From Patescibacteria group bacterium (GTDB lineage: Bacteria > Patescibacteriota > Microgenomatia > UBA8517), in the NCBI GenBank assembly GCA_041742135.1, contig JBGSJG010000008.1:96518-160517 (forward strand): a DNA stretch of 64,000 nt, given 5' to 3'. Of the stretch, positions 8,319 to 57,498 are shown one piece after another (within the stretch, counting starts at the first letter, position 1; the number at the start of each line of letters is the position of its first letter). A model generated the notes under the pieces. It was given only the letters and a program-made list of their open reading frames with translations, searched no databases and was not told where the DNA came from. Position numbers and translations under genes: made by a program.

Positions 8319-8968
8319 AAATACAAAATGTCGGTAAATGGAACGACGAAATGTTTTCAAAGCATCCGACTCCATATACGGGGTTTGCAGGCTTAGTGGA
8401 AAAAATTAGGATTAGAACTATCTTGGCGGACGCCAACATCGGCCCTAAAGATAAAGTGTTAGAAATAGGTTGTGAAGCTGGGAATTTAATAACATCGATC
8501 AATACTAGCGATAAGCTTACAGGATTTGACATTTCCAAGGAAGCTCTCGGCAATGCTAAAAAACTAGCACGCAAACTTGGCAAAAAAATCAAATTTGTTC
8601 AAGGTGATGCGACTAAGAAATTGCCATTCAAAAAGGGAGAATTCGACGTAATAATTTGCTCTGAAACGCTTGAGCATGTTTTAGATCCAGCGAAAGCGAT
8701 TGATAGAATTTGGGAAATTGCCGGGAAAAAGTCGCGAGTGATCATAACAGTTCCGAACGAGAAACCAAAGCTGGTCGTTAAAAAATTACTTAAGAAATTT
8801 CGCATTATGGACCTGGTAATGCCAGGGATAGAAGACAAACAGAGTGAATGGCACATTCATGCTTTTTCAAAACCTATGATTCTTAAGCTTCTTAAAAAGA
8901 ACTTTAAGATTGAGCGCGTGGGCTCGATCTTGGGGCTTCATGTTATTGTCAGCGCTCGTCCAAAGTAA
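8315..8968 (+). CDS. Class I SAM-dependent methyltransferase
   Basis: 217 aa. LEIGCEAGNL, GFDISKEAL, IKFVQGDATKKLPFKKGEFDVIICSETLEHVLDP. ATGA overlap with the upstream GT-C. Confidence 0.7.
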   Translation: MKIQNVGKWNDEMFSKHPTPYTGFAGLVEKIRIRTILADANIGPKDKVLEIGCEAGNLITSINTSDKLTGFDISKEALGNAKKLARKLGKKIKFVQGDATKKLPFKKGEFDVIICSETLEHVLDPAKAIDRIWEIAGKKSRVIITVPNEKPKLVVKKLLKKFRIMDLVMPGIEDKQSEWHIHAFSKPMILKLLKKNFKIERVGSILGLHVIVSARPK

Positions 8969-11650: not shown

Positions 11651-12000
11651 TTCTTTCGGCTCCTGGTTTTTTTGATCTGGCTAATTGTCTGAGTGCGTAC
11701 TAATTGCTCGATCTTTTTTTCAATTTCTCGGTTTTTCATAAAGTTATCAAAGCTGATTATTGCAAGAACTGCAAATGCCATGAGCATCAACAAGTCCAAT
11801 ATCCTGATCACGTTTAATGGTTTGATAATCGGCTCAAGTATTTCAGGGAAGAGCGTGAGCGTGATGAACCCAAGCCATAAAACAGTCCAAAGAAAAAAGT
11901 CACCTGAAGTCAATTTACCCTTTTTGTAATTGATAAAATTTACATAAAGCATGAAGAATGCAAAAAGAAGAGCTAATAGTTGTATTCCTAGCAAATGCAT
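11647..12000 (-). CDS. DUF2304-like small membrane protein (commonly paired with GtrB-like GT2)
   Basis: 117 aa, three to four TM helices, with a charged C-terminal tail. Immediately downstream of the GT2 polyprenol-P glycosyltransferase gene. Confidence 0.5.
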   Translation of the reverse strand: MHLLGIQLLALLFAFFMLYVNFINYKKGKLTSGDFFLWTVLWLGFITLTLFPEILEPIIKPLNVIRILDLLMLMAFAVLAIISFDNFMKNREIEKKIEQLVRTQTISQIKKTRSRKK

Positions 12001-12007
12001 AATTTAA

Positions 12008-12670
12008 TTAATCAAATCGCCATTTAAAAACTGACGGTAAAATTGCCAATGCGTCTAAAATTGAGACCCCTTTGTGTTTATCTATGTAGATAGTAGAAAT
12101 CTCAACTTCAGCGTATTGTAGTTTGTTTTTACCTGTTCTTGCAACCACCTCTGATTCAATTCCGTATCTTGGGCTTTTCCATTCAATTTTTTTGTAGGCA
12201 TCTTTATTGAAGGCTAGATAGCCGCACAATAAATCTTGGCGATATATACCAAACATCAAATGTATAAGCGAAGCCCCGAATTTGTTACCGATGAGTCTCA
12301 CAAGCGGAGCCTTGCCCACTAACTTCCTTTTGCCGAAGACAATGTCGTTTGAGCGAAGACTGTCTGCAAAGCGCGGAATGAATTTCGGATCGTGCTGGCC
12401 GTCAGCGTCGAGAACTATAATGGATGTAGCCCCGATATCGAATGCTGCTTCGCAACCAGTTTTTAATGCAGCACCTTTTCCTAAATTTATCTTATGCCTC
12501 AATGGTACCACTCCGTGCATAGTCGCGTTTTGGGCAGTTTTGTCTGATGAACCGTCGTCGACGACAATAATTTTATAGCCGAATTTTAATGTCTTTTTCA
12601 GCACATCTTTGATCCGAGCCGCTTCGTTATAAGCGGGGATTACTATGAAGATATTATTTTTCGATTTCAT
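12008..12670 (-). CDS. GT2 polyprenol-phosphate glycosyltransferase (GtrB/DPM1-like)
   Basis: 220 aa. IFIVIPAYNEAARI, IIVVDDGSSDKT and the DxD motif VLDADGQHDP. Confidence 0.8.
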   Translation of the reverse strand: MKSKNNIFIVIPAYNEAARIKDVLKKTLKFGYKIIVVDDGSSDKTAQNATMHGVVPLRHKINLGKGAALKTGCEAAFDIGATSIIVLDADGQHDPKFIPRFADSLRSNDIVFGKRKLVGKAPLVRLIGNKFGASLIHLMFGIYRQDLLCGYLAFNKDAYKKIEWKSPRYGIESEVVARTGKNKLQYAEVEISTIYIDKHKGVSILDALAILPSVFKWRFD

Positions 12671-14222
12671 CGATTAGTTGGCTAGCAAAATTCTCTCTAG
12701 AAAAATATTTTGCCTTTTGAACCGATAACCTGGAAAGTCTGGCGAGCTTTTTAGGACTGTTAATTAATGAAGCTGTTTTGTCAGCTAGTTCAGAAATAGT
12801 TTTCCAAGTTTGCTCTTCATTGTCTCCCACCGTTTCGCTTAATCCGCCTTCTTTGTAAACAATTGGAACTGCGCCTGCAGCCATTGCTTCGACTGGAGTA
12901 ATACCAAAATGCTCAGTTCTTATTGGTTCACGGTTTGCGTTTACTCCGTAACCGGTTGCATGCCAGTATATCGAAGCCTTGCCGTAGTACTTTTTAAGCT
13001 CGTAAAAACTTGCATGATAATGAAACTTTATTTTATAGCCAACAGAACTGGCCTCAACGGTGGAGACATAATCTGTATGCTGTTTGCCTGCAGAGATTCC
13101 ACCAACCAAGTGAAGCTCCCAATCTGTGTCTACCATGTGTTGATCCACCATCCTCTTGAAGGCTTCGATTAGAATATCTTGCCTTTTAGCATGCCCACCG
13201 ACAAAAAATCTTCCAACATTAAGAATAATTTTTTCCTTTTTGGCTGCTTTAAATAAATGTGTATCGATAGGTGGGTACAAAACGCCCGCTTCGCGCCCCC
13301 AATATTTTTTGGTCCATTTTTGTGAAAACTTGGAATCTGCCAAAAGAGACTTGTATGTATCCAAACCGGCTGCGGTCTTATAAGAGGAGCTTCCGTAAAG
13401 TGCCATTTCGTAGCGGGGCATATAGCGCTTAATTAGGTTCCACATAAAAAAGCGGGGGTTTCTAACAGTCATACTTACAAGACCAAGTGCATTAGCGTTG
13501 TCCTTGCCGTCTACCAAGATGTCAATTGCGGTATTACTGTTTTCCGAAATAACTTCCAGTTTGCAGGCCATAATATTAAAGTCGTGATCAATGTATCGGT
13601 CGACGACTTTTACACTTGCATTTGGAGAAGCAAAGCTTACAAGCGCCAAGGAGGAACGACTAATCTGCTCGACATAAATTCTTGCAATCATACTAAACTT
13701 TTTCGGAGTGTTGGAAAATACAATTGTATTCTTGGCACTCAACCACCTGCCACCTCTCGTATATACATCGTCGATTGGTTCAAGCCCTTTAATAACTTCT
13801 GGAACGATTAGCATGTTTCGGAGTATGGGCAGTACTGTTTCGTACTTAAGAAAGCCAAGTAAAGAATTTTTCATCGGGGTGGGGAACAATATGTAGTAAA
13901 TCGATTTCTTGGCCAAGGATGGTAAGTGGTCCAGAAAGCTAACGTTAATAAACAAATCATACTTTTTTGTTTTTGGTGACAAAATCGAGTAGCTTCGCTC
14001 ATACCAAACCACCGTATTAACGCGGGATAAGTCGACGCCCATTTTGGACTCCAGTTGTCCCATATCGCAGTCAAAGTTGGAGATAATATCAACCTTGTGG
14101 CCTGCTTTTGATAAAACTTCCGCCATGACCGTCGCTACTTTTTCTCCTCCTCCCATGGAGTTGAGCCATTTGTCGTAAATACCTACACGCAATTTTTGTG
14201 AACTAGTTTTTTTTGTTTTCAT
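12654..14222 (-). CDS. GT4 (GT1-fold, retaining) glycosyltransferase
   Basis: 522 aa. C-terminal Glycos_transf_1 signature EHFGITPVEAMAAGAVPIV and an N-terminal GT4 domain with a long insertion. Confidence 0.7.
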   Translation of the reverse strand: MKTKKTSSQKLRVGIYDKWLNSMGGGEKVATVMAEVLSKAGHKVDIISNFDCDMGQLESKMGVDLSRVNTVVWYERSYSILSPKTKKYDLFINVSFLDHLPSLAKKSIYYILFPTPMKNSLLGFLKYETVLPILRNMLIVPEVIKGLEPIDDVYTRGGRWLSAKNTIVFSNTPKKFSMIARIYVEQISRSSLALVSFASPNASVKVVDRYIDHDFNIMACKLEVISENSNTAIDILVDGKDNANALGLVSMTVRNPRFFMWNLIKRYMPRYEMALYGSSSYKTAAGLDTYKSLLADSKFSQKWTKKYWGREAGVLYPPIDTHLFKAAKKEKIILNVGRFFVGGHAKRQDILIEAFKRMVDQHMVDTDWELHLVGGISAGKQHTDYVSTVEASSVGYKIKFHYHASFYELKKYYGKASIYWHATGYGVNANREPIRTEHFGITPVEAMAAGAVPIVYKEGGLSETVGDNEEQTWKTISELADKTASLINSPKKLARLSRLSVQKAKYFSRENFASQLIDEIEK

Positions 14223-15595
14223 TACGAAAATTTTTTAAGTTGAGTCAAGCTTAATCTTTTAGCTCTTAAAAGTCCATGCAAAAAGGGGACTACGATTGAT
14301 AAATTTACTTTTACTCTGGAAACAAAACGCTGCCTAGCCATTTTTAGGTTACGTCTCCGAACATAATATAGCGGAATTGCAAAAGTGGAATATGTTAGAT
14401 AAACCAACCACTGCCAAATTGCTAGGTGCCTTGGCCAGTGTTTTGCTACAAAGAGCAATCTTCCTCGTTCAACATGGTAGACAAAAAATTCAGACCATTC
14501 CTGGCTAGATGCTGAGTGAATGTGCCGTACAACACACTTTGGGGAGTAAATAATTTTCCATTTTGACTCACGCATCCTAAGAGATAATTCCCCGTCTTCG
14601 TAATACATAAAAAAGTCTGGATCAAAATGGCCAACTTCCATAAGTGCTTTCTTGTTTAAAAGCACACCAGCCCCGCAAAATCCTTCAATTTCTTCCTCTT
14701 CGGCATATTGCCCCAAGTCCTCTTCGTAGAATTGCTGACTTTTGTAAACTATTGACCCCCGATCACGGCTAAAACCGTCACGAAAATAATAGTTGCCTGC
14801 ATTTTGAATTAAGTCGGAAGTAAATTCACGAGAATTATTAAGCTTTAGTTCAACTTTTTCCCCTTGGCCAATCTGTGCGAATTTCTGTTTTTTTGCAAGT
14901 TTGCCTTTAAGAAATATCTTATACTCACTTTTCCTGAATGGTTTGATTTCAATTTTGAGGGTAAAGGGCTTATTGAAAGAATGTTTGACAGGCAGGAATA
15001 AGCTTTCGGTAAAAAGCGTTTGAGTGTCAAGCGGAATGAGAAACGGCTCAACATTTGTTCCGTTAGCTCCGTGAGGTATAGAAAAATCTGAAAAGGCAGC
15101 CTCCTCAATTTTTACGGGTATATACTTGTCGATCAGAACCATTTTAGCGTTTACTGCGCCAATTTTTTGAGTTCGGCTCCACTTGGTGAAAGTAGCGACG
15201 ATTTCTGATAAGCAGTTTTTATCAAGCTCAGTGTCGTTATTGACCAAGAAGAACAGCTCGCCACGCGCTTTGGTCATTGCCAAGTTATTACCTTTCCCAA
15301 AGCCTATGTTCTGGGGCGATTTGATTATTCTAGTTTTTGGATAATTCTCTTTGATAAATTTTACAGAGTTGTCGGTCGATGCGTTATCAACAACTATTAC
15401 CTCGAATTTGTTTTTCGGATAATTTTGTTTGTGTGCTGAGCTCAAGAAGGCATCAAGATATTTTTTGCCGTTATAATTGACGGTGATTATTGATACAAAT
15501 TTGTTATTTGCCATTGCGAAAGATGCGTTCAATTTTTTCTTTCCAATAGAATGCTTTTGATGAAACGATTTGCTTTCGAATATAGAGCAAATCAT
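14222..15595 (-). CDS. GT2 family glycosyltransferase
   Basis: 457 aa. FVSIITVNYNGKKYL, VIVVDNASTDNS, FFLVNNDTEL, plus a long C-terminal extension. Confidence 0.75.
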   Translation of the reverse strand: MICSIFESKSFHQKHSIGKKKLNASFAMANNKFVSIITVNYNGKKYLDAFLSSAHKQNYPKNKFEVIVVDNASTDNSVKFIKENYPKTRIIKSPQNIGFGKGNNLAMTKARGELFFLVNNDTELDKNCLSEIVATFTKWSRTQKIGAVNAKMVLIDKYIPVKIEEAAFSDFSIPHGANGTNVEPFLIPLDTQTLFTESLFLPVKHSFNKPFTLKIEIKPFRKSEYKIFLKGKLAKKQKFAQIGQGEKVELKLNNSREFTSDLIQNAGNYYFRDGFSRDRGSIVYKSQQFYEEDLGQYAEEEEIEGFCGAGVLLNKKALMEVGHFDPDFFMYYEDGELSLRMRESKWKIIYSPKCVVRHIHSASSQEWSEFFVYHVERGRLLFVAKHWPRHLAIWQWLVYLTYSTFAIPLYYVRRRNLKMARQRFVSRVKVNLSIVVPFLHGLLRAKRLSLTQLKKFS

Positions 15596-15667
15596 TTTTC
15601 TCTTTTTCGAGCCTTTTAATTTCTTTTTTTAGTAAACCGTTTTCTTTACTTAATTCTTTAATGGTTT

Positions 15668-16552
15668 TCATGAGCGTGTGGCAATTGATTTTTTAAAATT
15701 ATTATATGCTTGCCAGGATTTGAAAAATCGCGAATTAACCAATTCTTCTACTTCTAAGCGGAGCGGGAATATCTCGTTTACTAGGTTGATTATCTCAGAC
15801 TTGAGCTGGGAATTTTCCTCAAGACGAATATTTAGCTCTTGAATTTTTTTATTACTTTTTTTAGATAATATTCTGTATTTGTCTACAAGGTCATAATACT
15901 TTGCCCAGATATCTCTAAAGCAAAGAATTTCGTCATAATCATTACTTAAAAATATTAACCCCAACCCGTGAGAGTGAAAGAAATCAAAGTAGGGGTGCTT
16001 CTTTTTTAACTCATTCCATAGCCGGTAGACTTCAAAGTCGCCCTTTGTTTCTTGGGTGTCGTGGAAAAGAACTATGCCATTTGTTTTAACTTTACTGACC
16101 CACCTATCAAAATCGTGTTTAACTGCCTTGTAGGTGTGAAGCCCGTCGATATGCAAAATATCTACTGACTTGTTGTCAATCCTTTGAGATCCAATATCAA
16201 ATGACTGTTTAACGAGTTTGATACTTACCTCGTTATACACTTTTTTAGAAATGTTTTTTACGTTTTTAAAAATGTCAGGACCGTAAAAACCTGTGTGTTT
16301 GTCTCCTTCCCAGGTGTCAACACCCACAAGTTGGCACTTCATTTTTCCGTCTTTGATTGCTTGGGCCATTGAAAAAAGTGAACCGCCTTTATAAGTGCCC
16401 AACTCAACGATTTGTGTGGGTTTTAAATTTCGAATCAGATCGTAAATAAAATATCTATGCCCTTCCCAGGCTGAAGAAAGATCTCCAAATTCTTTTTCAT
16501 ATTCAAATTTTGGTGAATAGTAAATCCAATCAAGTGGTTTAACCGTTAACAT
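15668..16552 (-). CDS. SAM-dependent O-methyltransferase (Methyltransf_24/TylF-CmcI-like)
   Basis: 294 aa. VELGTYKGGSLFSMAQ, VGVDTWEGD, LHIDGLHTY. C-terminal 70 aa are predicted coiled-coil. Paralog of 22336..22995. Confidence 0.6.
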   Translation of the reverse strand: MLTVKPLDWIYYSPKFEYEKEFGDLSSAWEGHRYFIYDLIRNLKPTQIVELGTYKGGSLFSMAQAIKDGKMKCQLVGVDTWEGDKHTGFYGPDIFKNVKNISKKVYNEVSIKLVKQSFDIGSQRIDNKSVDILHIDGLHTYKAVKHDFDRWVSKVKTNGIVLFHDTQETKGDFEVYRLWNELKKKHPYFDFFHSHGLGLIFLSNDYDEILCFRDIWAKYYDLVDKYRILSKKSNKKIQELNIRLEENSQLKSEIINLVNEIFPLRLEVEELVNSRFFKSWQAYNNFKKSIATRS

Positions 16553-16561
16553 TTTATAGGT

Positions 16562-18112
16562 CTATATTTTAGATCTTAGTGATTTTAAACGATAAATGTA
16601 CTTTGCGTAAGTGACTGATTTCGGCGTGCCCACCCTTTTTAAAATTTTTTTATATTCCAAAATTCGTCTTTCGCTTCTGGGGATACAAATTTGTTTATAA
16701 ACTTCGGGAAGCAAACCTGCTTTATATAAATCGTACCAATCCTTCCAGTGCCAACCTAACCCGGGTGATTTATCGGGATTTTTCAAGTATGATTTTCCGC
16801 CATTTACAACCTTTGACTTGAATTGACTGTATGATCTGATTGAAAAATGGTGAATGAAAATATGCTGAACATCGATCCTTTTCTGGGGAGCATCTCCAGA
16901 CACCAAGTGGTTGCCTTGCTCGATTTTTACAAACTCCGAGGCGGTCATTACTTTAGGATGGTAAATATGCAAAAACAACCGCCAACTTGGATCGCGAGAA
17001 TATTCAGCAGCATGGGTGTAAGGATTGGATACTATGTATTTCTTGGAAGTTAAAGGGGTATTGTGTAACTCCGGCAAGTAGTTGATAACTGGAACATAAT
17101 ATACTTCGTTTTGCTTTGGCAATTGAGTTTTAAGATCTCCTGAGGTCGGGTACCAGAACTCGTCTGCATCTGCATGGAGGAGGTGAGTAGCTCCGAAACT
17201 ATCGACAGCCTTCTTTGCCATTTTTGATACCCACTTGCTTTGCTCGTATGTGTGCGTTTTTTCATTGTTTAAATCGAGAACCCCTTGCTTTTGGTATTTT
17301 TTGAGAATTTCCAAAGTCCCATCCTTTGATCCGTTATCAGTAGCTACGATATAGTCGACACCATGGTTTAGGTGGAAGCAAATGTTATTTTCTATTATGT
17401 CGGCTTCATCTCGGACGAGTAATGTCATGACTAGCCGTGGCTTGGTAACTTTGTGTTTGGAGACCGCACGATTTTTCCCCCATCTGTGAGACCAGTGGTG
17501 TATGGCGTGAGTATTTTTCTTAATGCAATCTTTGTTGTAGGTTTGATTCCACGCGTATGGATAAAAGTACGATGGTGGATAAATCATTACGTCGTCGACT
17601 CGAACTCCTTTTTCGTTATATTTTTTTAGACCGTGATTTTCGAGTAATTTAGTTACCAACCTCGGAGAGGAAACGTTTGCTTCTTCTGTGCCATCAAATG
17701 TGTCAAGAAGATTGTTCATACTTTCTTTGATAAACCAGTGATGTTTATTGGCACCAAAAACGGCGTTGTTAACCCAATCACCCTGATCTTTATGTGCTGA
17801 TTGAAACCCGAAAAAGCACTTATTCCTTAACAATTCGTCAAAATTTTTTAACACTAATACGTCTGTATCAAGGTAGACTCCACCGTGCTTGTAAACAGCC
17901 ACCAGGCGAAGTAAGTTAGAAATATTTGCCCAATTTTTTGACTTGAATGCTTTTTTGAAATAGGGGATTTCTAAATCGACATCTTTGTCGCTCCAAAGCA
18001 TTAGTTTGTAATCTGGATTGTGTTTGAGCCAAGAACGAATAAACCTATCCTTTTTGGGGTTTGGTGCACGTTGGTCGCCAACCCAGACATAGTGAATTAT
18101 TTTTGGAATCAT
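16562..18112 (-). CDS. Two-domain glycosyltransferase: N-terminal GT32 (DXD sugar-binding region) fused to a C-terminal GT-A (GT2-like) domain
   Basis: The MIPKIIHYVWVGDQ...YKLMLWSD...DTD block is characteristic of GT32. The C-terminal half has LLVRDEADIIENN...ATDNGSKDGT...HADADEF (GT-A DxD). The ORF track starts at 18142, but the duplicated remnant at 22339 supports the internal Met (18112) as the true start. Confidence 0.7.
   Translation of the reverse strand: MIPKIIHYVWVGDQRAPNPKKDRFIRSWLKHNPDYKLMLWSDKDVDLEIPYFKKAFKSKNWANISNLLRLVAVYKHGGVYLDTDVLVLKNFDELLRNKCFFGFQSAHKDQGDWVNNAVFGANKHHWFIKESMNNLLDTFDGTEEANVSSPRLVTKLLENHGLKKYNEKGVRVDDVMIYPPSYFYPYAWNQTYNKDCIKKNTHAIHHWSHRWGKNRAVSKHKVTKPRLVMTLLVRDEADIIENNICFHLNHGVDYIVATDNGSKDGTLEILKKYQKQGVLDLNNEKTHTYEQSKWVSKMAKKAVDSFGATHLLHADADEFWYPTSGDLKTQLPKQNEVYYVPVINYLPELHNTPLTSKKYIVSNPYTHAAEYSRDPSWRLFLHIYHPKVMTASEFVKIEQGNHLVSGDAPQKRIDVQHIFIHHFSIRSYSQFKSKVVNGGKSYLKNPDKSPGLGWHWKDWYDLYKAGLLPEVYKQICIPRSERRILEYKKILKRVGTPKSVTYAKYIYRLKSLRSKI
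18058..18112 (-). repeat. Copy A of a roughly 55-bp direct repeat (5' end of the GT32 gene); copy B is at 22268..22339
   Basis: A 33-nt exact match (ggtttggtgcacgttggtcgccaacccagacat) is flanked by about 22 nt of roughly 70% identity. The differences include synonymous codon changes. Confidence 0.8.
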
Positions 18113-18345
18113 AGCTGCATTATAAAGCGAAGTGGTATCCAAAGCATAACAAGTAAATCATACCCTAAGCCTTTACAATCAAAAAGATATCAAGAATAAT
18201 CGGTTTGAGCCTGTGAAGGTCGTTAAGGCAACATACGCAGTAAATCTCAACATGGTATATTTATACAACCAAGTGACCTCTGGTGTAAGCGCCAAAGGAA
18301 AGTATCTTGTTAGCTCAGTCAAATTTCGTATAAAAATGTAAAATA

Positions 18346-19584
18346 ATGAAGGTTTTGTTGGTTGCTGATGTCGGAAGAACTGATTATGGTTTTTATCATG
18401 TTGGTGACGAAGCCATGTTTTATGAAACAGTCAGATGGTATAGCAAAAACAGACCTTTGTATGCAATTGGCGCTCTATCTAGGTCCACAACTCGTAAAAA
18501 TTTGAGGGTTAAAGAATATCAACATCTGTCTTTCCCGCCCCAGGATTGGACCGCGAGAAAATACTTATTCAAGTTGATTATTAAGAATTTACTGTTCAAA
18601 TTTACGGGGATAATAAAATTCAATTCTGTTGAGCTTAACTTCGTTCAACTTGTGCAGAAATATGATCTGATTCACTTTTGTGGCGGCGGTAATTTCTATA
18701 GTATTTCTGTTTCGTGGTTATATTATGCCTTTTACATTATTTTTTTGGGGAAAATTTATGGAAAAACTACAATTTTAACTAGCCAGACAATAGGTCCTTT
18801 TCGAGGGATCGATAAAATATTTGTGCCTATTTTTTTGAATATGCCAAAGCTTATCGGTGTGCGAGAACCTTCAGACGATATTACTTTATATAAGCACAGA
18901 GTAATTCGACCAAAGGTGATATCTATGATTGATAAGGCCTATACACTACCAAGCATTAAATCTACATTAGTGGTACAAACCAAGAAAACAAAAATCGGTT
19001 TGAGCCTACATCGGTGGCAGGGCGTGGAAGATAATATGATTAACATAGTGTTGAAAGCATTAAATGAGATAGCGAAAACAAAAGACATTGAAGTATTTAT
19101 TATCCCCCACATTATCGTTAAAGCTGATAATGATTGGGACAACTTGTATATGAGCCAAATAATTAGCAAATTAAATAAGCAGATAAAGGTAAAGATTGTC
19201 AAATACAGTGATTTAACCAAATCTAAGAATGAACCTGCATGTTTAGTAAAGCATATTACCTCAAAAATGGATGTTCTAATATCTTCGAGATATCATGGAC
19301 TTGTTTTTGCACTGTCTGAAAACGTTCCTTGTATGTCTTTTTCGATGGGCGAGTATTACAAAAGTAAAAACGAGAAGGCACTGAAGTTCTGGTACGGGGA
19401 AAGGTATTCGGATTACATCTTCAGTCTCGAAAATTATAATCCAACACTATTCACAAAAAAATTAAACTCAATACTTGAGGATCTACCAAAACAAAAACTG
19501 GACTTAAAAGTGGCAAATCAAAAATTATCATCAAGCAAATCCATATTTAACCTTCAAGGTGTCCTTGAGATTACAAAATGTTAG
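18346..19584 (+). CDS. Polysaccharide pyruvyl transferase family protein (CsaB/WcaK-like)
   Basis: 412 aa. N-terminal Rossmann-like MKVLLVADVGRTDYG...HVGDEAM and the family's characteristic C-terminal ISSRYHGLVFAL. Confidence 0.65.
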   Translation: MKVLLVADVGRTDYGFYHVGDEAMFYETVRWYSKNRPLYAIGALSRSTTRKNLRVKEYQHLSFPPQDWTARKYLFKLIIKNLLFKFTGIIKFNSVELNFVQLVQKYDLIHFCGGGNFYSISVSWLYYAFYIIFLGKIYGKTTILTSQTIGPFRGIDKIFVPIFLNMPKLIGVREPSDDITLYKHRVIRPKVISMIDKAYTLPSIKSTLVVQTKKTKIGLSLHRWQGVEDNMINIVLKALNEIAKTKDIEVFIIPHIIVKADNDWDNLYMSQIISKLNKQIKVKIVKYSDLTKSKNEPACLVKHITSKMDVLISSRYHGLVFALSENVPCMSFSMGEYYKSKNEKALKFWYGERYSDYIFSLENYNPTLFTKKLNSILEDLPKQKLDLKVANQKLSSSKSIFNLQGVLEITKC

Positions 19585-20703
19585 TTAAGATAGCAACATC
19601 TTCTTGTAACTTCTTAAAAGCATCTTAAATATTAGCCATCTGGCATGCAAACGAGGAAACGGTAGATTTTTCAAAAGATCCCACCAAAGGAACAGTCTGT
19701 GCTTTGGTTCTATAAGTAAATTTAGTAAATGATAGGGAGGGATGCGCCCCATCGTTTTAAAGTTTTCCAGGGCACCAACCGAGTCAAGTTGCAGCATTGT
19801 TCTTAAACACTTATGGCACTTTGAGCAGTTATACGCACCTCCAATGTTCTCGTAGCATACACGTAAATGATCTTGAGCTAGTTTGTAATCGCGTATAAAA
19901 AATGTTTTTTCTGATCGTTTAAGTCCGGACCCAGACGAGTATATCTTTAGTGTTTTTGTAGACCACAAGCGATCAAGATCTGGGTGTGTGCCATACGGGG
20001 CATAGGAAAGATTTGCGTCTTCCGAGTTAAAAGCAACTACATCAAGCCCTTTGGCTAATAAATATGAAACCGATGCTAAAGCTGCGCCGTGCCCGGCATC
20101 CCATCTGACCGCTTCTTGCACAAACCCTTTTAGATTAGTTTTTACTACGATTAACTTCTTTTCTGTTTTTTTGGCAACCTTCTTGGCGTTTTTTAATACC
20201 ACGGAAAATAACTTTTTATCATTCAGAGCAATATCAAATCCATGTACGAGAATTAGATGAGTAAGACGTGTGGATTTACGTATTTCTGATTTCTTTAATG
20301 TATAAAACGAGTCTAGTCCCAAAGAAAAGAAAGCTCCTTTACCTTTCTTTACGGAACGTATTGAAACTGCTTTTGTTGTCGATGTAGCAATATTAATGGG
20401 ATAAAGTTTCGACCAGGAATCTGTGTCAGGCCAAGAGCTTGTTAGTTTCATGACTTTGTACAAACTGTTAAGTAGGTCTTGGGATATCGATTCTTCGATA
20501 ATAAGTTCCTCCTTAAATCGCATGGACATAAATAGCAAAATCGGAAGAAATACCTCTGGCCCCAGCGAAAGTAAATTGCGATTTGAAGCCTCGGTCTCAA
20601 ACCAGATTTCGTATTTTTTGTCCAAAGAAGGACTTGTGACAAAAGCTGAAAGTCGAATATTGCCTTTTCTGAATGAAATACGAGATCGAGAGAGTTTCAC
20701 CAT
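19585..20703 (-). CDS. QueC-like PP-loop superfamily protein with a C-x9-C-x2-C-x2-C zinc motif and a roughly 130-aa N-terminal extension; PP-loop degenerate (SLGLDS)
   Basis: 372 aa. FFSLGLDSFYT sits at the PP-loop position and CYENIGGAYNCSKCHKCLRT matches QueC-type Cys tetrad spacing. Paralogous over its whole length to 20723..22153. Confidence 0.45.
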   Translation of the reverse strand: MVKLSRSRISFRKGNIRLSAFVTSPSLDKKYEIWFETEASNRNLLSLGPEVFLPILLFMSMRFKEELIIEESISQDLLNSLYKVMKLTSSWPDTDSWSKLYPINIATSTTKAVSIRSVKKGKGAFFSLGLDSFYTLKKSEIRKSTRLTHLILVHGFDIALNDKKLFSVVLKNAKKVAKKTEKKLIVVKTNLKGFVQEAVRWDAGHGAALASVSYLLAKGLDVVAFNSEDANLSYAPYGTHPDLDRLWSTKTLKIYSSGSGLKRSEKTFFIRDYKLAQDHLRVCYENIGGAYNCSKCHKCLRTMLQLDSVGALENFKTMGRIPPYHLLNLLIEPKHRLFLWWDLLKNLPFPRLHARWLIFKMLLRSYKKMLLS

Positions 20704-20722
20704 GATATTATAAACCTAAACC

Positions 20723-22153
20723 ATGTTGATTAAAAAAGGATCAAAATTAACAAAGCTAAGAATGAAACATGGCGGATTGGTGTTTGAAAGTTTTGATGAA
20801 CGGTATGACGGCGCTTCGTTGATAGTTGGGTTCTCATATTTACTTGAACCAGATTTTAAAATAAGAAATGAGATTGTATTTCCGAATGTGTCAATCGGGC
20901 GTTACGAGCAAATTAAAGGAGATGGGCTGAGTAATCTGTTTTTTCATCTAGGCTTAGGAGAGATGATGCTTATGTGGAGATTTGCTTGTCCCCAGAACAT
21001 AAAAATTAAAGCCGGATACTTAAACAACAAACAGCTCCTTTTTTGGAAAGATGTGTTCACTGCAGGATTCGGCGAATTTTATTATAAAGAGAAAATAAAT
21101 TTTAAGAAAAAAGATTTTTTGTTGTTTCATGTCTTAGGCAAAAAGACAAAACCCGCACTTTTCAAAGGGCCTCTAATAGACAGAGACCTACTTTTAACAA
21201 CTGGCGGTAAGGACTCGGCAGTTACAATGGAGATTTTGAGAAATAGTGAACGAGAAATAGCATGCTTACTCCTTGATCCTCAAAAGTCCGCAATACAAGC
21301 GTGCCAAATTGCAGGTGTAACGTCAATTACACTCTCCAGGAGAGAAGATGATAAATTGTCAAAACTCGTAGGGAAAAAATATTTTAATGCGCACACCCCC
21401 TGGACTGTTTATCTATCGCTGCTATCAACTGTCGCTAGTGCCATTTACAATTATAAGAATGTCATCGTTTCCAACGAAGAAAGTGCCAATGAAGGCAATG
21501 CCGTCTTTTTGGGTATGCCGATAAATCACCAATACAGCAAAAGCATAATATACGAGAATGATTTTCGGGAATACCTGGTACATTATCTATCACTACGTAC
21601 AAATTTCTTTAGCTTCTTGAGACCATTGCAAGAACTACAGATATGTAAGCTGTTTGCAACGATGAGACAATATCACAACACTTTTAGAAGCTGTAATGTT
21701 GGAATGATGGCGGGGGATTGGTGTTTAAATTGTGCCAAGTGTCTTTCTATCTATTTGACTTTGTACCCTTTTATGGGTAAAAAGTTGCATCCTATATTTG
21801 GTGAGCGATTTTTGGACAAAACTGAGTTACTACCTTTGCTTTGTGGGTTAATGAATGTGAAAGGTAAGACAAAACCTTTTGAGTGTGTGGCGACCATCCA
21901 CGAAATTAAAGTAGCAGTATTTATGTGTAGGCAGAAAGCAAAACTTGAAGGCGAAAAACCTTTTAAGTTGCTTGAATATGTTAAGAGATATGAAGAAAAC
22001 GATATTGCTTGCCTAAATTATTGGAACAAGAACAACAATCTACCCACTTCTCATAAAAGAATTCTTAGAAACGTTTATAATGAGACTAAGCCAGATTCCT
22101 ACTTGGTACCGGAAGAGCGTTTTACAATCTTCAGAAAGTTATTTTTCAGCTAA
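20723..22153 (+). CDS. QueC-like PP-loop ATP pyrophosphatase-family protein (candidate sugar amidotransferase or other adenylating enzyme) with zinc motif and long N- and C-terminal extensions
   Basis: 476 aa. Intact PP-loop LLLTTGGKDSAV, an SNEESANEG block, and CNVGMMAGDWCLNCAKCLSI (C-x9-C-x2-C-x2-C). Divergent from its paralog, with start codons only 19 bp apart. Confidence 0.5.
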   Translation: MLIKKGSKLTKLRMKHGGLVFESFDERYDGASLIVGFSYLLEPDFKIRNEIVFPNVSIGRYEQIKGDGLSNLFFHLGLGEMMLMWRFACPQNIKIKAGYLNNKQLLFWKDVFTAGFGEFYYKEKINFKKKDFLLFHVLGKKTKPALFKGPLIDRDLLLTTGGKDSAVTMEILRNSEREIACLLLDPQKSAIQACQIAGVTSITLSRREDDKLSKLVGKKYFNAHTPWTVYLSLLSTVASAIYNYKNVIVSNEESANEGNAVFLGMPINHQYSKSIIYENDFREYLVHYLSLRTNFFSFLRPLQELQICKLFATMRQYHNTFRSCNVGMMAGDWCLNCAKCLSIYLTLYPFMGKKLHPIFGERFLDKTELLPLLCGLMNVKGKTKPFECVATIHEIKVAVFMCRQKAKLEGEKPFKLLEYVKRYEENDIACLNYWNKNNNLPTSHKRILRNVYNETKPDSYLVPEERFTIFRKLFFS

Positions 22154-22267
22154 CAACTTGTGGTGTAGCATTTCTTTTCGATAGCCTTCAACAATCTTTT
22201 TTGGCCCGTTGGATTTTTTTATAACATTTTTTTTGAAACGACTCGTCTCCAATAGTCAAGATTTCAT

Positions 22268-22339
22268 CTATGAGGAGTATTTGAGGTTTGGTGCACGTTG
22301 GTCGCCAACCCAGACATGGTGGATAACTTTAGGGATCAT
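22268..22339 (-). pseudogene. 23-codon remnant of a second GT32 glycosyltransferase gene (MIPKVIHHVWVGDQRAPNLKYSS*), ATGA-coupled to the upstream methyltransferase
   Basis: Copy B of the direct repeat. Identical to the N-terminus of the GT32 domain of 16562..18112 at 18 of 20 residues, and stops after 23 codons. Confidence 0.65.
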
Positions 22340-22995
22340 ATTGTCTTATACCAAATCGTGTCTTTGACCTCGACCTTTCCGCAAATTTTGTCAACATTCT
22401 CTCTAACATTAAAAAAAACTTTTGGATCTGCGAAAACAAAACCATAGTCATGTCCGCTGTAAATACCGCCCTTCTTAACTTTCGGGATATAATTTTTGAT
22501 GTCTTGGCTAACTACAGGTTCTGTATGATCTCCATCGACAAAACAGAAATCAAAAGCCTTGTCGGCTACAGCTTTATGTGCCTCGACAGAATTCATGATA
22601 ATAAAGCTAACCGGTAAGCCGTTTAGGTGCCTGAGTGCATTGTCTCTTAAAAAGTCTAAATTATCCGGCTTGCCTCCAAACAGCATGTCTCCGTTGAAAT
22701 TGTCAATACAGACCAAATGCGCGTTCCTTGTAGCACAGACACTAGCTATAATGTATGCGCTGTTGCCTTTCCACGTACCCACCTCGAGTGCCAGCCCATT
22801 TCGTTTGATGGCACGATTTGCTAAATCCCAGATAACACCTGACTCAACATCGGAGTGAATAATTTCTCCAGGAATTCTGGCTCTTTTAACTACTTTGGAC
22901 TTGGAATAGTAGCCATTAAAAGGATTTGATAGTTTACCGATCTTAATTTTAAGCCTCATTTTGGATATAAGTTTTGATAACCTGTCGTGGGTCAC
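22336..22995 (-). CDS. SAM-dependent O-methyltransferase (Methyltransf_24/TylF-CmcI-like)
   Basis: 219 aa. LEVGTWKGNSAYIIA, VCIDNF, FVDGDHT. Paralog of 15668..16552. Confidence 0.6.
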   Translation of the reverse strand: MTHDRLSKLISKMRLKIKIGKLSNPFNGYYSKSKVVKRARIPGEIIHSDVESGVIWDLANRAIKRNGLALEVGTWKGNSAYIIASVCATRNAHLVCIDNFNGDMLFGGKPDNLDFLRDNALRHLNGLPVSFIIMNSVEAHKAVADKAFDFCFVDGDHTEPVVSQDIKNYIPKVKKGGIYSGHDYGFVFADPKVFFNVRENVDKICGKVEVKDTIWYKTI

Positions 22996-23680
22996 CGTCA
23001 GCTTCTTTTTTGGTCGATTTAATATAGATTACTCTTGTGCAAAATTCCTTGACTGCATCCATCGAGTGGCTTACAAAAATAATGGTTTTCTTCTCCTTCT
23101 TAAACTCTTCCATTTTTTTCATACATTTACGCCTGAAACGCTCGTCGCCGACAGCAAGAATCTCGTCTACAAGTAAGATATCGGGCCCAGAATTTACGGC
23201 AATTGAAAAACCTAGCCGGACATACATTCCAGAAGAGTAATGTTTGAGCGGGGTATCAATAAACTCCGATAATTCGGCAAAACTAACGATGTCATCGAAC
23301 CTAGCGTCTATCGTTTTGCGCGAAAGGCCAAGAATGGCCCCGTTAATATATATGTTGTCACGGCCGGAAAGTTCTGGATGAAAACCTGCACCAAGCTCAA
23401 TAAGCGGAGCAATTTTGCCTTTGACACGCACCTCGCCTTTTGACGGAACCATAACGCCGGCAATTAATTTCAGAATTGTAGATTTGCCCGAACCATTCTT
23501 ACCGATTATTCCGACAGTTTCTCCACGTCTAATGCTAAAACTGACTCCATCTAATGCGTTGAAGTGGTCTTGAGACCTAAAATTAAGAATGTCCAAAAGT
23601 GCTTCTTTTAGAAGTAGCTTCTGCCCCTTTTTAAAGCTCTTTGAGACATTGTAAAACTCAATTGTGTTATTTGGGTCCAT
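22949..23680 (-). CDS. wzt: ABC transporter ATP-binding protein of polysaccharide/teichoic-acid exporters (Wzt/TagH-like, short form without a C-terminal carbohydrate-binding domain)
   Basis: 243 aa. Walker A GKNGSGKST, signature YSSGMYVRLGF, Walker B LLVDEILAVGD, and an H-loop FVSHS. Confidence 0.85.
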   Translation of the reverse strand: MDPNNTIEFYNVSKSFKKGQKLLLKEALLDILNFRSQDHFNALDGVSFSIRRGETVGIIGKNGSGKSTILKLIAGVMVPSKGEVRVKGKIAPLIELGAGFHPELSGRDNIYINGAILGLSRKTIDARFDDIVSFAELSEFIDTPLKHYSSGMYVRLGFSIAVNSGPDILLVDEILAVGDERFRRKCMKKMEEFKKEKKTIIFVSHSMDAVKEFCTRVIYIKSTKKEADGDPRQVIKTYIQNEA

Positions 23681-24468
23681 TAAATTACGTCGGCGAAATA
23701 CCTTGATCTTTTTCGAAAGTATACGAATCCTAAAACAAAAATTGCTAATGAGAAAATCATTGAATACGCGAATGACGGCATGGGTGGAGGGACACCATAT
23801 AGAACAACGTTGCGGTAAGCATTTACAATACCGGTCATCGGGTTTAGGTTAAAAAGTGAAACTAGATTTGCGGGGATTAATTCCGGTGGATAAATGATCG
23901 GTGTCATGTACATCCAGACCATCAAAAAAACGCTAAGAATATTTTCAACATCTCGAAAGAACACGTTTGTCGCGGATAGAACCAAAGATACACCCAGAAC
24001 TAGCATAAAATGAAACAGGAAAATGACAGGCAAAAATAATATTGAGGGGAAGATGGTGACCTTAAAAATTATCAAAATTACGGCCAAAATTGAAGCAGAT
24101 AAAATTAAGTCAACTGACTTGGCTAATATTGAAGACAGCGGAAAAATTTCTCTTGGGAGGTAAATTTTGGTAATAAGCTGTTGATTTGCTACCAAACTGC
24201 TTGTTGCTGCCGAAATAGAACTTGCTGTAAACATCCAAGGGACCAAAGCTACAAACAGAAATACTGGGTAAGGAATGTTGCCTGTTTGGATTCTCACAAG
24301 AAAAGAGAAGACTACGGTTAGTACGACAAGGTTAATGAGGGGAACCAAGATTACCCAAGCATAGCCCAAAATTGATTGCTTGTATTTAGCCTTAATTTCT
24401 CGCTTTACGAGTTCTTTTATAAGCGCGCGGTACTTGCGCACATTTAGAATGTTTATAAAAGGAAGCAT
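23680..24468 (-). CDS. wzm: ABC-2 type exporter permease (Wzm/TagG-like)
   Basis: 262 aa, six TM helices, ABC-2 family topology. 1-nt overlap with the ATPase gene. Confidence 0.75.
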   Translation of the reverse strand: MLPFINILNVRKYRALIKELVKREIKAKYKQSILGYAWVILVPLINLVVLTVVFSFLVRIQTGNIPYPVFLFVALVPWMFTASSISAATSSLVANQQLITKIYLPREIFPLSSILAKSVDLILSASILAVILIIFKVTIFPSILFLPVIFLFHFMLVLGVSLVLSATNVFFRDVENILSVFLMVWMYMTPIIYPPELIPANLVSLFNLNPMTGIVNAYRNVVLYGVPPPMPSFAYSMIFSLAIFVLGFVYFRKRSRYFADVI

Positions 24469-24507: not shown

Positions 24508-25581
24508 ATGGACGCTGTTCGATTGGTCACAAAGTATTTTATGGTTTGGCGTCTTCTACTGTTTTTTCCATTGCTTCTTTCAGGTAATCTTCCCATGCGT
24601 TTAGCTTATGTGTATCCGTATCTGCAAAATCCTCTCCTTTCAATTTGGGCAAATTTTGACGGGGTTCACTATATTTCTATAGCTTCAGCAGGCTATGCCA
24701 ATCAAGCAGCATTTTTTCCTCTGTATCCGATGATTCTTAGAATGCTCGTTTTTGGTGCAGCAAATATAAATTACTATTTAGTTAGTGGACTACTAATTTC
24801 CAATATAGCTTTTTGGGCAGCGCTTGTAGTTTTTTACAAATTGATACGTTTGGATTATTCCGATTCAGTAGCAAAGTGGAGCGTAGTATTTATGCTTACT
24901 TTCCCTACGGCATTTTTTTTCGGAAGTGTTTATTCAGAAAGCTTGTTTTTACTTCTACTTCTATTGTCTTTTTGGTTTGTACGCAAAGGCAACTGGCTTA
25001 TGGCTTCTGTCTTTGGAATTTTTGTGTCTGCAACGCGTCTTGTTGGTGCTCTGCTTGCCCCTGCGCTTTTATTGATTCAACGCCGCGTAGTATTTTTTCT
25101 AATTCCAGTTGGGACTCTAGCCTATGCAGTTTTTAATTATTTTCGCTGGGGAGATCCACTTCATTTCATTAAAGTACATGGAGAACTTTCAAATGGCAGA
25201 TCTACTGAGTCTATGGTTTTAGTTCCTCAGACTATTTTTAGATACGCCAAAATTCTATTTAGTTTATCGCCTTCGCAGTTTGAATGGTGGATTTCGGCTT
25301 TGGAACTTTCAGTCTTTGTTTTGGTAGTTTATTTACTCTACAAAGCTGTGAAGCTCAAAGTTTATAAGTCGTATGTAGCGTTCAGCGCATTTGCATTTTT
25401 AATTCCCGTGAGCTCCGGAACATTTAGCGGGCTTCCAAGATACGTACTTGTTTTATTTCCGATTTATATAGTACTGGCAATGATAAAAAGTGATACAACA
25501 AAGAAGCTAGTCGCAATTCTTTTTGCCTTTTTGTTGACAATTCTTTTAATGTTTTTTTCAAAGGGTTATTTTATAGCATGA
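24508..25581 (+). CDS. GT-C-type membrane glycosyltransferase (PIG-V/GT87-like mannosyltransferase fold candidate)
   Basis: 357 aa, polytopic. The first-loop motif WANFDGVHYISIASAGY resembles the conserved loop of PIG-V/DUF2029-type GT-C enzymes. Confidence 0.45.
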   Translation: MDAVRLVTKYFMVWRLLLFFPLLLSGNLPMRLAYVYPYLQNPLLSIWANFDGVHYISIASAGYANQAAFFPLYPMILRMLVFGAANINYYLVSGLLISNIAFWAALVVFYKLIRLDYSDSVAKWSVVFMLTFPTAFFFGSVYSESLFLLLLLLSFWFVRKGNWLMASVFGIFVSATRLVGALLAPALLLIQRRVVFFLIPVGTLAYAVFNYFRWGDPLHFIKVHGELSNGRSTESMVLVPQTIFRYAKILFSLSPSQFEWWISALELSVFVLVVYLLYKAVKLKVYKSYVAFSAFAFLIPVSSGTFSGLPRYVLVLFPIYIVLAMIKSDTTKKLVAILFAFLLTILLMFFSKGYFIA

Positions 25582-26867: not shown

Positions 26868-27930
26868 TATCAGTCAAATTGTTTATGAGACCGGCGTTTC
26901 GGTTTATACACGAGAGTTGGTGTCAGCGCTCGTCAAAAAATATCCTGATCATGAATTTGTTTTATATGGCGGCTCGCTACGCAGATCTCGTGAATTAAAG
27001 AATTTTCTTCTTGGCTCAAAAAATGTCACAAAAAAGCTTTCAAAGCTTGCGCCTTCCTTCGCGAACTTGATTTGGAACAGGCTTCATGTCTTGCCGATTG
27101 AGCAAATGATTGGAAAAGTCGATGTTTTTCATACATCTGATTGGGCCGAAGCTCCGGCCAGTTGCCCCAAAGTAACCACCATTCACGATTTATCGATTTT
27201 TAAATACCCCGCTCTCACTCACCCTAAAATTTTGGCTACTCACACGCGGCGCATGGCTTGGGTTAAAAAGGAATCGGACTGTGTGATAGTGCCCTCAACC
27301 GCTACTAAAGACGAAGCCCTTAAGCTTGGAATTTATGAGGATAAAATCGTTGTGATTCCTGAAGCAGTAAGTGGCATCTTCACGCCTAAAAGTAAATCTG
27401 AAATTGGCAAAGTAATGAGTAAGTACAAAATTAGCACCCCCTATGCATTAGCTGTAGGAGCAAATCCGCGAAAAAATATCGACCGAATTATTAAGGCTTT
27501 TTATAAATCAAAAGCTAATAGCAAACTCAAACAATTGGTTGTAGTTGGTAGGGGGCCAGCGATTGAAGACCTGGGTGTTAATTTTCTGGGTCACGTACCG
27601 GCAGATGATCTTCCGGCGCTTTATAGTGGAGCAGGCTTACTTGTTTATGTTTCAATTAATGAAGGTTTTGGTCTTCCAATTCTTGAAGCTTTTGCTTGCG
27701 GCTGCCCGGTTCTCACGTCTAATGTTTCCAGTATGCCAGAGGTTGCAGGTAAAGCTGCGGTTTTGGTAGACCCAATGTCCGTCGAAGAAATCTCGAAAGG
27801 CTTCGTGAAAACTGTGAATAATAGGGAAAAATTAGTTGATTTGGGCCTTCGGCGTGTGAAAAAATACAATTGGGATATGGTGGCCAGTGAGACTATGAAG
27901 GCCTACGAGAGTGTGGTTGCAAGTAAGTAA
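26851..27930 (+). CDS. GT4 glycosyltransferase
   Basis: 359 aa. EGFGLPILEAFACGCPVLTS (E-x7-E region). Confidence 0.8.
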   Translation: MKIGIDISQIVYETGVSVYTRELVSALVKKYPDHEFVLYGGSLRRSRELKNFLLGSKNVTKKLSKLAPSFANLIWNRLHVLPIEQMIGKVDVFHTSDWAEAPASCPKVTTIHDLSIFKYPALTHPKILATHTRRMAWVKKESDCVIVPSTATKDEALKLGIYEDKIVVIPEAVSGIFTPKSKSEIGKVMSKYKISTPYALAVGANPRKNIDRIIKAFYKSKANSKLKQLVVVGRGPAIEDLGVNFLGHVPADDLPALYSGAGLLVYVSINEGFGLPILEAFACGCPVLTSNVSSMPEVAGKAAVLVDPMSVEEISKGFVKTVNNREKLVDLGLRRVKKYNWDMVASETMKAYESVVASK

Positions 27931-56367: not shown

Positions 56368-56424
56368 GTCCTTATTTTACTACAAACAACTTGTGCCGTG
56401 AAAAGTTGGGCAGAGATTGATATA

Positions 56425-57495: not shown

Positions 57496-57498
57496 AAA

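Follow-up and report, generated by a model that had tools for sequence, protein, structure and literature searches.

In the O-antigen and capsule clusters of E. coli, Salmonella and Shigella, gene modules are replaced by recombination between conserved flanking genes. Gene remnants occur in the O-antigen clusters of 9 among 178 E. coli serogroups and, together with non-coding gaps, are a recognised mark of recombinational remodelling and of relatively recent events (PMC7685785). Orphaned gene ends also accumulate in the effector-immunity arrays of the Vibrio type VI secretion system and in Rhs loci, for which homology-facilitated illegitimate recombination (HFIR) has been proposed (PMC5361080); in this process one end is a homologous exchange and the other an illegitimate joining, so that new genes are gained and resident genes are left displaced or truncated (PMC3240628). 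We have analyzed a surface-glycan locus of an uncultured member of the Patescibacteria, contained in a 64-kb stretch of contig JBGSJG010000008.1 that is referred to here as the window. The 5' end of a glycosyltransferase gene (family GT32) is present twice in this locus, and the second copy is a short stub joined to the middle of a dead gene for an ABC-transporter ATPase. The locus resembles the O-antigen and capsule clusters in its modular replacement. Unlike O-antigen remnants, those found here join the head of one gene to the middle of another from the same operon, and no insertion sequence (IS) or mobile-element gene is involved. The gene content also recalls ABC-dependent glycan loci of the Wzm/Wzt type: ABC2_membrane and ABC_tran genes are followed by methyltransferase and glycosyltransferase genes, with a CsaB-like pyruvyl transferase. 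The ATPase of the window is nevertheless short (243 aa) and without an extra C-terminal domain.

When the window was compared with itself, the duplicated 5' end was recovered as its sole long direct repeat (18053-18113 versus 22280-22340; 61 nt, 89% identity, spacing 4227 nt). With the ATG as nt 1, copy A (18056-18112) and copy B (22283-22339), both on the minus strand, agree at 50 of 57 bases, and the mismatches fall at nt 5, 8, 12, 14, 17, 21 and 55. The two copies share a 33-nt exact core (18058-18090 in copy A; 22285-22317, minus strand, in copy B, with 0 mismatches). Allowing up to 3 mismatches, the core has 2 matches in the window and none in 100 dinucleotide shuffles. The direct repeat is a segmental duplication and not a product of chance; the search and the shuffles both confirm the duplicated GT32 5' end and exact core that were reported in a preliminary description of this DNA. 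The extent given there for the second copy needs correction: both copies are real, but the repeat ends at ~22283, and 22268 is only the stop of the stub open reading frame (ORF).

Copy A is the beginning of an intact gene (16562..18112, minus strand) for a 516-aa fusion of a GT32 domain (Gly_transf_sug, PF04488, E=6e-17) and a GT2_4 domain (PF13704, E=7e-13). The live fusion scores 62.5 bits against the GT32 Pfam model, for which the cut-off is 23, and thus belongs to the family. Copy B (22283..22339, minus strand) holds GT32 codons 1 to ~19, and its ORF runs on to the stop at 22268. Translation of this ORF (22268-22339) gives the 23 codons MIPKVIHHVWVGDQRAPNLKYSS, followed by a stop, and its start overlaps by 4 nt (ATGA) the end, at 22336, of an upstream methyltransferase gene of the Methyltransf_24 family, here called MT24; on both points the preliminary description was correct. 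Two residues of the stub that do not vary among all six functional fusions have changed (I5V and Y8H), which indicates decay under relaxed constraint. The live copy's own two differences are synonymous. With 19 of the ~225 GT32 residues the stub is, by its sequence, a non-functional glycosyltransferase. It cannot be a functional member of GT32 because only 19-20 of its codons derive from that family and these end before the DXD region. Stub and live gene have in common the segment VGDQRAPN, which is lineage-specific and 3 codons shorter than in relatives, and they therefore come from closely related GT32 genes.

Directly after the stub, and overlooked in the preliminary description, lies the relic of an ABC-transporter ATPase gene (22194..22292, minus strand). 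It was detected by tblastn as TKPQILLIDEILTIGDESFQKKCYKKIQRAKK, corresponding to codons ~166-198 with the Walker B and D-loop region, out of frame with the stub. The surviving Walker B / D-loop stretch reads ILLIDEILTIGD; stops stand on both sides and ~100 nt are deleted. The first ~10 nt of the relic overlap the end of the GT32 homology, which places the joint within 22283-22292. At this joint GT32 codon ~19 passes into ABC ATPase codon ~166 (Walker B), on the same strand and out of frame. The relic is a pseudogene fragment of the ABC_tran family and not a member gene, as no open frame spans Walker A, the signature motif, Walker B and the D-loop together. Homology is lost after relic residue ~198. 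Compared with L003, one of the two nearest relatives of this locus, the 3' part of the ATPase gene lacks ~95-100 nt ahead of the stop of the next gene, which encodes a MurL-family protein. The degenerate remainder up to that stop (22154..22193, minus strand) has no convincing homology in the alignment; similarity of these last 40 nt to an ATPase C-terminus (G..KIV..Y) was too weak to be used. The relic adjoins the 3' end of the MurL-family gene, which is the place of the live ATPase in both nearest relatives (L003 and L011). A scan for relics of the intergenic segments of six loci and of a 233-nt spacer that precedes the live GT32 gene turned up, within the window, only that of the ATPase. The 23-codon ORF and the 'spacer' 22154-22335 should accordingly be annotated as pseudogene fragments.

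The synteny of more distant related loci is informative. Five other GT32/GT2_4 fusions were found, of which four have a readable context. The type I loci (L001, L002, L009 and L010) have the order ABC2, ABC_tran, MT24 (optionally MT23), GT32/GT2_4, in 4/4 of the fusion carriers with readable context. MT24 followed by GT32 is thus the usual operon order of the fusion, which explains why the stub is coupled to MT24 and bears out the earlier view of copy B as a dead 5' stub attached to its upstream methyltransferase. L003 is the nearest relative overall and shares a collinear stretch with positions 8949 to 24468 of the window, with the order ABC2, ABC_tran, MurL-like, PP-loop, pyruvyl transferase, stand-alone GT2_4, GT2, GT1, GT2, DUF2304; its ATPase is convergent with the MurL-like gene, the two stops lying 5 nt apart. 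The partial L011 locus reads ATPase 3' end, PP-loop gene, pyruvyl transferase, stand-alone GT2_4. MT24 is missing from L003, and the GT32 domain from both L003 and L011. What the window has in addition to these two loci is MT24 with the stub and the ATPase relic, the GT32 domain and the 233-nt spacer. The three genes between relic and spacer (MurL-family, PP-loop-fold and pyruvyl transferase) are referred to below as the three-gene block.

No strain-level relative was found in the collections searched: exact look-ups of window proteins were empty and the database clusters were all singletons. Scanning genome contigs with MT24 returned only the contig of L001 and two distant matches, and a scan of metagenome contigs with an MT24 alignment returned one distant match. 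An alternative allele of the locus was not present in any collection searched. Nor does any of the relatives found carry an intact second GT32 gene, a case that the preliminary description had named as fatal to its interpretation.

MT24 and its upstream neighbours differ in their ancestry. Between MT24 of the window and its counterparts in L001, L002 and L009 the identity is 72-73%, and among those three it is 69-77%. The ABC2 permease is 68% identical to that of L003 and 43-47% to those of type I loci; for the intact ATPase the values are 71-72% and 53-56%, and its CM.K.EEF signature is common to L003 and L011. Taken together, the two ABC genes are 43-56% identical to type I loci, as against 71-87% within that clade, and 68-72% identical to L003. 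By these values MT24 belongs with the type I clade and the ABC genes do not, so that MT24 has a different history from its upstream neighbours, an incongruence of ancestry that is read from 5-7 sequences. The relic is also unlike the resident ATPase. Its amino acid identity by tblastn is 75% to L009, 74% to L010, 71% to L001 and 66% to L002, and 58% to the ATPases of the window and of L003 alike; to the intact ATPase gene of the window it shows 55% nucleotide identity. It lacks V8, M24, E28, E29 and F30 of the resident-type ATPases (M24, E28, E29 and F30 are common to the window, L003 and L011, and V8 to the window and L003, the L011 fragment ending short of V8), and one of these differences, Met to Tyr, takes three base changes. 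Because five residues that are uniform in resident-type ATPases are absent, the relic did not arise by decay from a copy of the resident gene.

The explanation that we favour, with moderate confidence, is that the duplicated 5' end is a stub left by one illegitimate, HFIR-like joint between two versions of the locus, and that the window holds a mosaic glycan locus. Two locus versions would have recombined once, illegitimately and in the homology-facilitated manner. The interval from ATPase to GT32 would have been doubled with differing cargo, namely MT24 in one copy (the type I layout) and the three-gene block in the other (the layout of L003 and L011). Both modules would now be stacked, each gene being retained in one live copy, and the broken ends would persist as stub and relic. 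Read along the minus strand, such a locus would run normally through ABC2, ATPase, MT24 and GT32 to codon ~19-20 (~22283), continue into a second, dead ATPase, and restart GT32/GT2_4 from codon 1 beyond the three-gene block and the 233-nt spacer. The topology of the joint argues for this. It ties the 5' end of the downstream gene to the 3' half of the upstream gene and is therefore that of an unequal crossover or tandem duplication: the minus strand passes from GT32 codons 1 to ~19 into ABC_tran codons ~166-198, and ABC_tran precedes GT32 in 4/4 relatives. As in tandem-duplication joints, gene parts of the same strand meet with the topology that is diagnostic of a duplicated interval from ATPase codon 166 to GT32 codon 19. 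Unlike a simple recent tandem duplication, the two interval copies of the window differ, one holding MT24 and the other the three-gene block. They are not recent paralogues, given the 55% nucleotide identity of the relic to the live ATPase and the different cargo. Since the relic is not of resident type and the cargo differs, the joint would lie between two locus versions rather than within a plain in-genome duplication. The window may be likened to HFIR products in having one novel joint with both modules retained. In this case, however, the process is deduced from sequence, and any microhomology at the joint can be narrowed to a few bases in the interval 22283-22292. The earlier suggestion that this is a genuine footprint of glycan-locus remodelling is supported. 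The data themselves establish the repeat, joint, relic and synteny, and the incongruent ancestry of MT24 and the relic; that there was a single event, and which of the two parents was the resident one, is deduced from them.

Several points weigh against this explanation. No single-event route accounts for all of the ancestry signals. These conflict, the ABC genes and the block being L003-like, MT24 type I-like, the relic not of resident type and the stub window-specific, so that at least one parent must already have been mosaic. For the second parental layout (block, spacer, GT32/GT2_4) there is no direct example, as L003 and L011 are without GT32. The right-hand end of the homology lies exactly at the ATG, and an insertion that ended there by chance is an alternative; such an edge is natural, however, because two orthologous genes would be meeting in different upstream contexts. 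The difference-free 33-nt tract requires either gene conversion as an extra assumption or luck at the level of ~1-2%. In the collections searched, no genome is closer than about 50-72% protein identity.

If 7 mismatches are spread over 57 nt, the probability that 33 nt in a row remain free of them is ~0.01, and the core shows 0 differences where ~4 are expected. The core is thus non-random at about the 1-2% level, which makes a later gene-conversion patch plausible; gene conversion, already raised in the preliminary description, is in that sense a fair suggestion, but it is unproven. By manual count, the stub has changed at ~9% (about 5/57 nt) and the relic at ~7% (about 6/84 nt) of otherwise conserved positions. 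This comparable decay suggests one event of moderate age, which would correspond to about 9-10% neutral divergence.

Two forms of insertion have to be set against a single joint between locus versions. A piece of ~0.8 kb carrying MT24, stub and relic, a part of a type I operon in circularly permuted order (MT24, GT32 codons 1-19, ATPase from codon 166), could have entered an L003-like locus at the boundary of ATPase and MurL-like gene. Its source would be a tandem duplication in the donor or a circularised fragment, and GT32 would have been fused to the resident GT2_4 by the same or a separate import. This agrees with L003 and L011, in which the block directly follows the ATPase and MT24 is lacking, with the type I-like identity of MT24, with a relic that differs from the resident type and finds its highest scores among type I ATPases, and with the adjacency of the two foreign-looking pieces, between which there is only the stub. 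The stand-alone glycosyltransferase of L003 begins with MKPRLVMTLL, matching the inter-domain linker TKPRLVMTLL of the fusion, so that either L003 has lost the GT32 domain or the window has gained it, with the break precisely between the two domains. We nevertheless consider entry of an MT24 piece rather unlikely. The stub has the window-specific VGDQRAPN and the 33-nt identity with the live GT32, so that the donor would need the same GT32 lineage, or conversion would have to act across non-homologous sequence. More steps are needed than for one unequal crossover. Entry of the Campbell type, moreover, predicts a donor-type tail on the live ATPase; when the live ATPase was examined for such a chimera, the tail appeared resident-type (EFC..VYIK...GD, as in L011) up to ~residue 230. 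Conversely, the 3' half of a foreign ATPase, with block and spacer, could have been inserted at codon ~19 of a type I GT32 gene with a 57-nt target duplication. The operon would then be native and uninterrupted as far as the stub, in keeping with its 11-nt and 4-nt gene overlaps; the stub would be a plain copy of the resident gene, which accounts for the shared lineage-specific sequence; relic and block would be contiguous, as in L003 and L011, and the relic would be no copy of the resident ATPase. Such an insertion is slightly less likely still. It needs 57 nt of target sequence to have been duplicated with a right-hand border that coincides with the ATG. In addition, the block is no more foreign than its flanks (53-65% versus 53-72% identity to L003, with normal GC content at third codon positions, GC3) and looks ancestral, occupying the same position with resident-type flanks in L003 and L011. 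The preliminary description had likewise taken the block to be inserted into, or to replace most of, one GT32 copy, a model that does not predict a stub joined to the middle of a dead ATPase.

The remaining alternatives are much less probable. The same description proposed a tandemly duplicated methyltransferase-GT32 unit, with the block replacing most of the first GT32 gene and the second methyltransferase. Two Methyltransf_24 genes and two GT32 5' ends are indeed present in the region, but the layout is methyltransferase, glycosyltransferase stub ... glycosyltransferase, methyltransferase, with the second methyltransferase downstream and not upstream of the live glycosyltransferase gene. The two methyltransferases (207 versus 294 aa) are only 28% identical, which rules out a duplicated methyltransferase-glycosyltransferase unit; no methyltransferase remnant lies in 18113-18345, and the ATPase fragment joined to the stub is not predicted. 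The replacement model built on that unit is accordingly very improbable. A similarly poor prospect is that the 33-nt repeats are kept identical as a recombinase-independent site at which the 4.2-kb block is lost and regained, giving a phase-variable glycan. The core does have 0 differences against the ~4 expected, and recombination at the core would rebuild an intact MT24-GT32/GT2_4 operon as in L002, L009 and L010. Against this, neither a recombinase nor inverted repeats were found, a deletion could be reversed only with a donor, the MurL-family gene of the block may be needed for peptidoglycan, and no alternative allele appeared in any collection searched. A length of 33 nt is also near the lower limit for RecA-dependent exchange. 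An IS or transposon target-site duplication was rejected, since the repeat is 57 nt with 7 differences rather than ~2-15 bp identical, and neither inverted repeats nor a transposase accompany it. An integrase island with att repeats was rejected as well, there being no integrase and no tRNA, and one repeat copy being tied to a pseudogene fragment and not to an island end. The searches behind these statements detected no transposase or integrase domain among the window ORFs scanned with Pfam, no tRNA in the window and no Rfam matches, and no terminal inverted repeats at 18113 or 22282. An assembly artefact, in the form of a chimeric join at the shared 33-mer or of duplicated contig ends, was also considered, as the contig (297 kb) is metagenome-assembled and a 33-nt exact repeat is a common assembler k-mer size. 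It is the least probable of all. The copies differ at 7/57 positions, and what follows the core of copy B is a pseudogene fragment in decay that does not recur in the window, so that the adjacency of core and relic must exist in a real molecule. A k-mer chimera gives a path switch and not a new gene-to-gene joint with a ~100-nt internal deletion, and the synteny of both flanks matches real relatives.

With a joint between two locus versions as the favoured explanation, two alternative modification modules, the methyltransferase and the pyruvyl-transferase/PP-loop block, would now be stacked in one locus. The ABC/MT24 operon would end after MT24, its transcript running into the convergent MurL-like gene, and GT32/GT2_4 with its downstream genes would depend on a putative promoter in the 233-nt spacer; the old operon would thus form two or more transcription units. 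Recombination between the 33-nt repeats could still remove the block, with a loss of 4227 nt and the rebuilding of an MT24-coupled GT32/GT2_4 gene. A deletion allele, if present, would read ATGATCCCTAAAGTTATCCACCAT + core + CCCAAAAAGGATAGG, and an excised circle, if present, ATGATTCCAAAAATAATTCACTAT + core + TCAAATACTCCTC. Were the repeats in fact an excision site, maintained in identity through repeated recombination or through selection, the population would toggle between a methylated-only glycan operon, with MT24 coupled to GT32/GT2_4, and a form with the pyruvyl-transferase/PP-loop block, and the conserved GT32 5' end would be a transferable stretch of homology through which these uncultured bacteria exchange modules. 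The locus provides a clean, datable case of a surface-glycan operon of an uncultured member of the Patescibacteria that was rebuilt without a mobile element. It is an ordinary evolutionary scar with an unusually legible joint, in a poorly studied lineage, and represents no new mechanism or type of element.

The operon upstream of the joint begins with the gene for an ABC-2 type transporter permease (23680..24468, minus strand; ABC2_membrane, E=7e-18), followed by the intact ATPase of 243 aa (22949..23680, minus strand; ABC_tran, E=2e-21) and by MT24 (22336..22959, minus strand; PF13578, E=1.6e-17). MT24 overlaps the stop of the ATPase gene by 11 nt and the start of the stub by ATGA. Its span was previously given as 22336..22995; to judge from the orthologues the most likely start is the ATG at 22959 rather than the GTG at 22995, as the former gives 207 aa, like the orthologues (207-209 aa). 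Divergent from the ABC operon is a gene for 357 aa (24508-25581, plus strand) with the lowest GC3 in the window (0.30, z=-2.7). Its homologues in L001, L002 and L003 are 34-37% identical, and the one in L003 has a Pfam Mannosyl_trans2 match.

The intact fusion at the other end of the repeat is 49-51% identical to the five other GT32/GT2_4 fusions, and its C-terminal half is 59-62% identical to the stand-alone GT2_4 proteins of L003 (59-61%; 6714-7586) and L011 (3058-3948), whose counterpart in the window is 16562-17430. Beyond the fusion the order on the minus strand is GT32/GT2_4 (18112-16562), a second Methyltransf_24 gene, here MT24b (16552-15668), then GT2 and GT1. MT24b (15668..16552, minus strand; 294 aa, PF13578, E=4e-21) is 28% identical to MT24 and 44% identical to a 297-aa methyltransferase of L010. 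The L010 gene (1692-2585) stands upstream of the fusion and MT24b downstream, so that the same module occurs on opposite sides of the glycosyltransferase gene.

The block itself contains one gene on the minus strand, like the operon, between two on the plus strand; the preliminary description had put the intervening genes on strands opposite to the operon, which holds only for the outer two. The gene next to the relic and convergent with it (20723..22153, plus strand) encodes the 476-aa MurL-family protein, 65% identical to that of L003. MurL is an ATP-dependent epimerase (PMC8788868). The resemblance lies in the domains MurL_N and MurL_epimerase_C, which Pfam assigns to the database copy of the 476-aa protein, and in the match to the NCBIfam MurL equivalog (E=8e-54). 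Unlike MurL itself, the protein scores 182.8 bits against an equivalog cut-off of 700 bits, and its gene lies in a glycan locus beside a PP-loop-fold gene and not beside MurD2. With neither a score of at least 700 bits nor adjacency or fusion to MurD2, it is a member at the family level only. No Mur ligase neighbours the gene, the mur cluster being ~30 kb away, and MurD-MurL fusions are common among its homologues. The gene may serve as the cell's peptidoglycan L-Glu to D-Glu epimerase rather than as a glycan enzyme, in which case loss of the block would be costly. The dcw/mur cluster of the window (45419-60357) comprises MraW, a PBP, MurA, a MurC-MurB fusion (49568-52030) and two more Mur-ligase genes, together with Ddl, MraY, FtsW and MurG.

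The divergent partner of the MurL-family gene (19585..20703, minus strand; 372 aa) is 63% identical to its counterpart in L003 and matched no Pfam or NCBIfam family. Its AlphaFold model has a predicted local distance difference test score (pLDDT) of 96, and the best solved folds are TilS, TtuA, MnmA and LarE, with weak matches (E~0.01). The family motif FFSxGxDSFYT is present, with a C-terminal Cys cluster, and the model is consistent with a PP-loop ATPase-like fold in general. The label 'QueC-like' that had been given to this pair is therefore apt for the PP-loop protein at the superfamily level only: no QueC match was obtained for either protein in Pfam (E<=1) or NCBIfam (E<=0.1), and the partner is of the MurL family. 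This divergent pairing is conserved in the window, L003 (8847-11431) and L004 (8831-11440), with ~20 nt between the two genes, and the PP-loop partner stands alone in L012. Its C-terminal Cys cluster resembles that of the MurL-like protein (R.C...C..C.KCL), a short Cys motif being all that is shared.

The third gene of the block (18346..19584, plus strand), divergent from GT32/GT2_4, encodes a polysaccharide pyruvyl transferase of 412 aa (PS_pyruv_trans, E=2e-17). It belongs to this Pfam family with 64.4 bits against a gathering score of 25.3, does not reach the CsaB equivalog (80.8 versus 213 bits), and is 53% identical to the L003 protein and 42% to that of L001. Per-gene GC and GC3 are unremarkable (for the pyruvyl transferase, GC z=-2.2 and GC3 z=-0.9). 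The genes of the block are 53-65% identical to L003 and the flanking genes 53-72%; the block is therefore as old in the lineage as its flanks. Relative to L003 and L011 it is probably not a recent arrival, as it occupies its usual place between ABC ATPase and glycosyltransferase gene. The 233-nt spacer (18113..18345) separates the start of the pyruvyl transferase gene from that of GT32, and its equivalent in L003 and L011 measures only 40 nt. No relic of any neighbouring gene was detected in it by tblastn, and a weak 45-aa match to a pyruvyl transferase was judged to be chance, as frame and spacing are inconsistent. The spacer holds one site with promoter-like consensus, on the plus strand (18172-18200); the promoter/terminator scan was at background level.

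Some further repeats and rearrangements were recorded. A 21-nt repeat with 90% identity (15 nt exact) links the spacer (18192-18212) and the interior of the pyruvyl-transferase gene (18987-19007) in different reading frames; it too was judged to be chance, with inconsistent frame and spacing and a borderline value against chance expectation. Diverged short direct repeats (73-77%) were found at 27641-27695 / 36747-36801, 30450-30487 / 35298-35335 and 35918-35952 / 38128-38162. The first two pairs lie within paralogous GT1 or GT2 genes and are probably conserved motifs, not recent duplications; the third pairs the start of a GT1 gene with that of an NTP-transferase gene. The segment that immediately follows the ABC ATPase looks like a recurrent site of module exchange. 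In L001, an opposite-strand radical-SAM gene and a pyruvyl transferase (42% identical to that of the window) lie between ATPase and MT24 (7030-9343). In L003, the segment 1757-1878 (minus strand) contains a 13-aa 5' stub, MKVGIIGAGYTGV, of an amine-oxidase gene that is intact in the window at 10385-11650. This stub stands between the same two flanking genes; the match is tentative, being short and covering the Rossmann motif, and it may represent a second case in this locus family of a 5' stub from gene loss.

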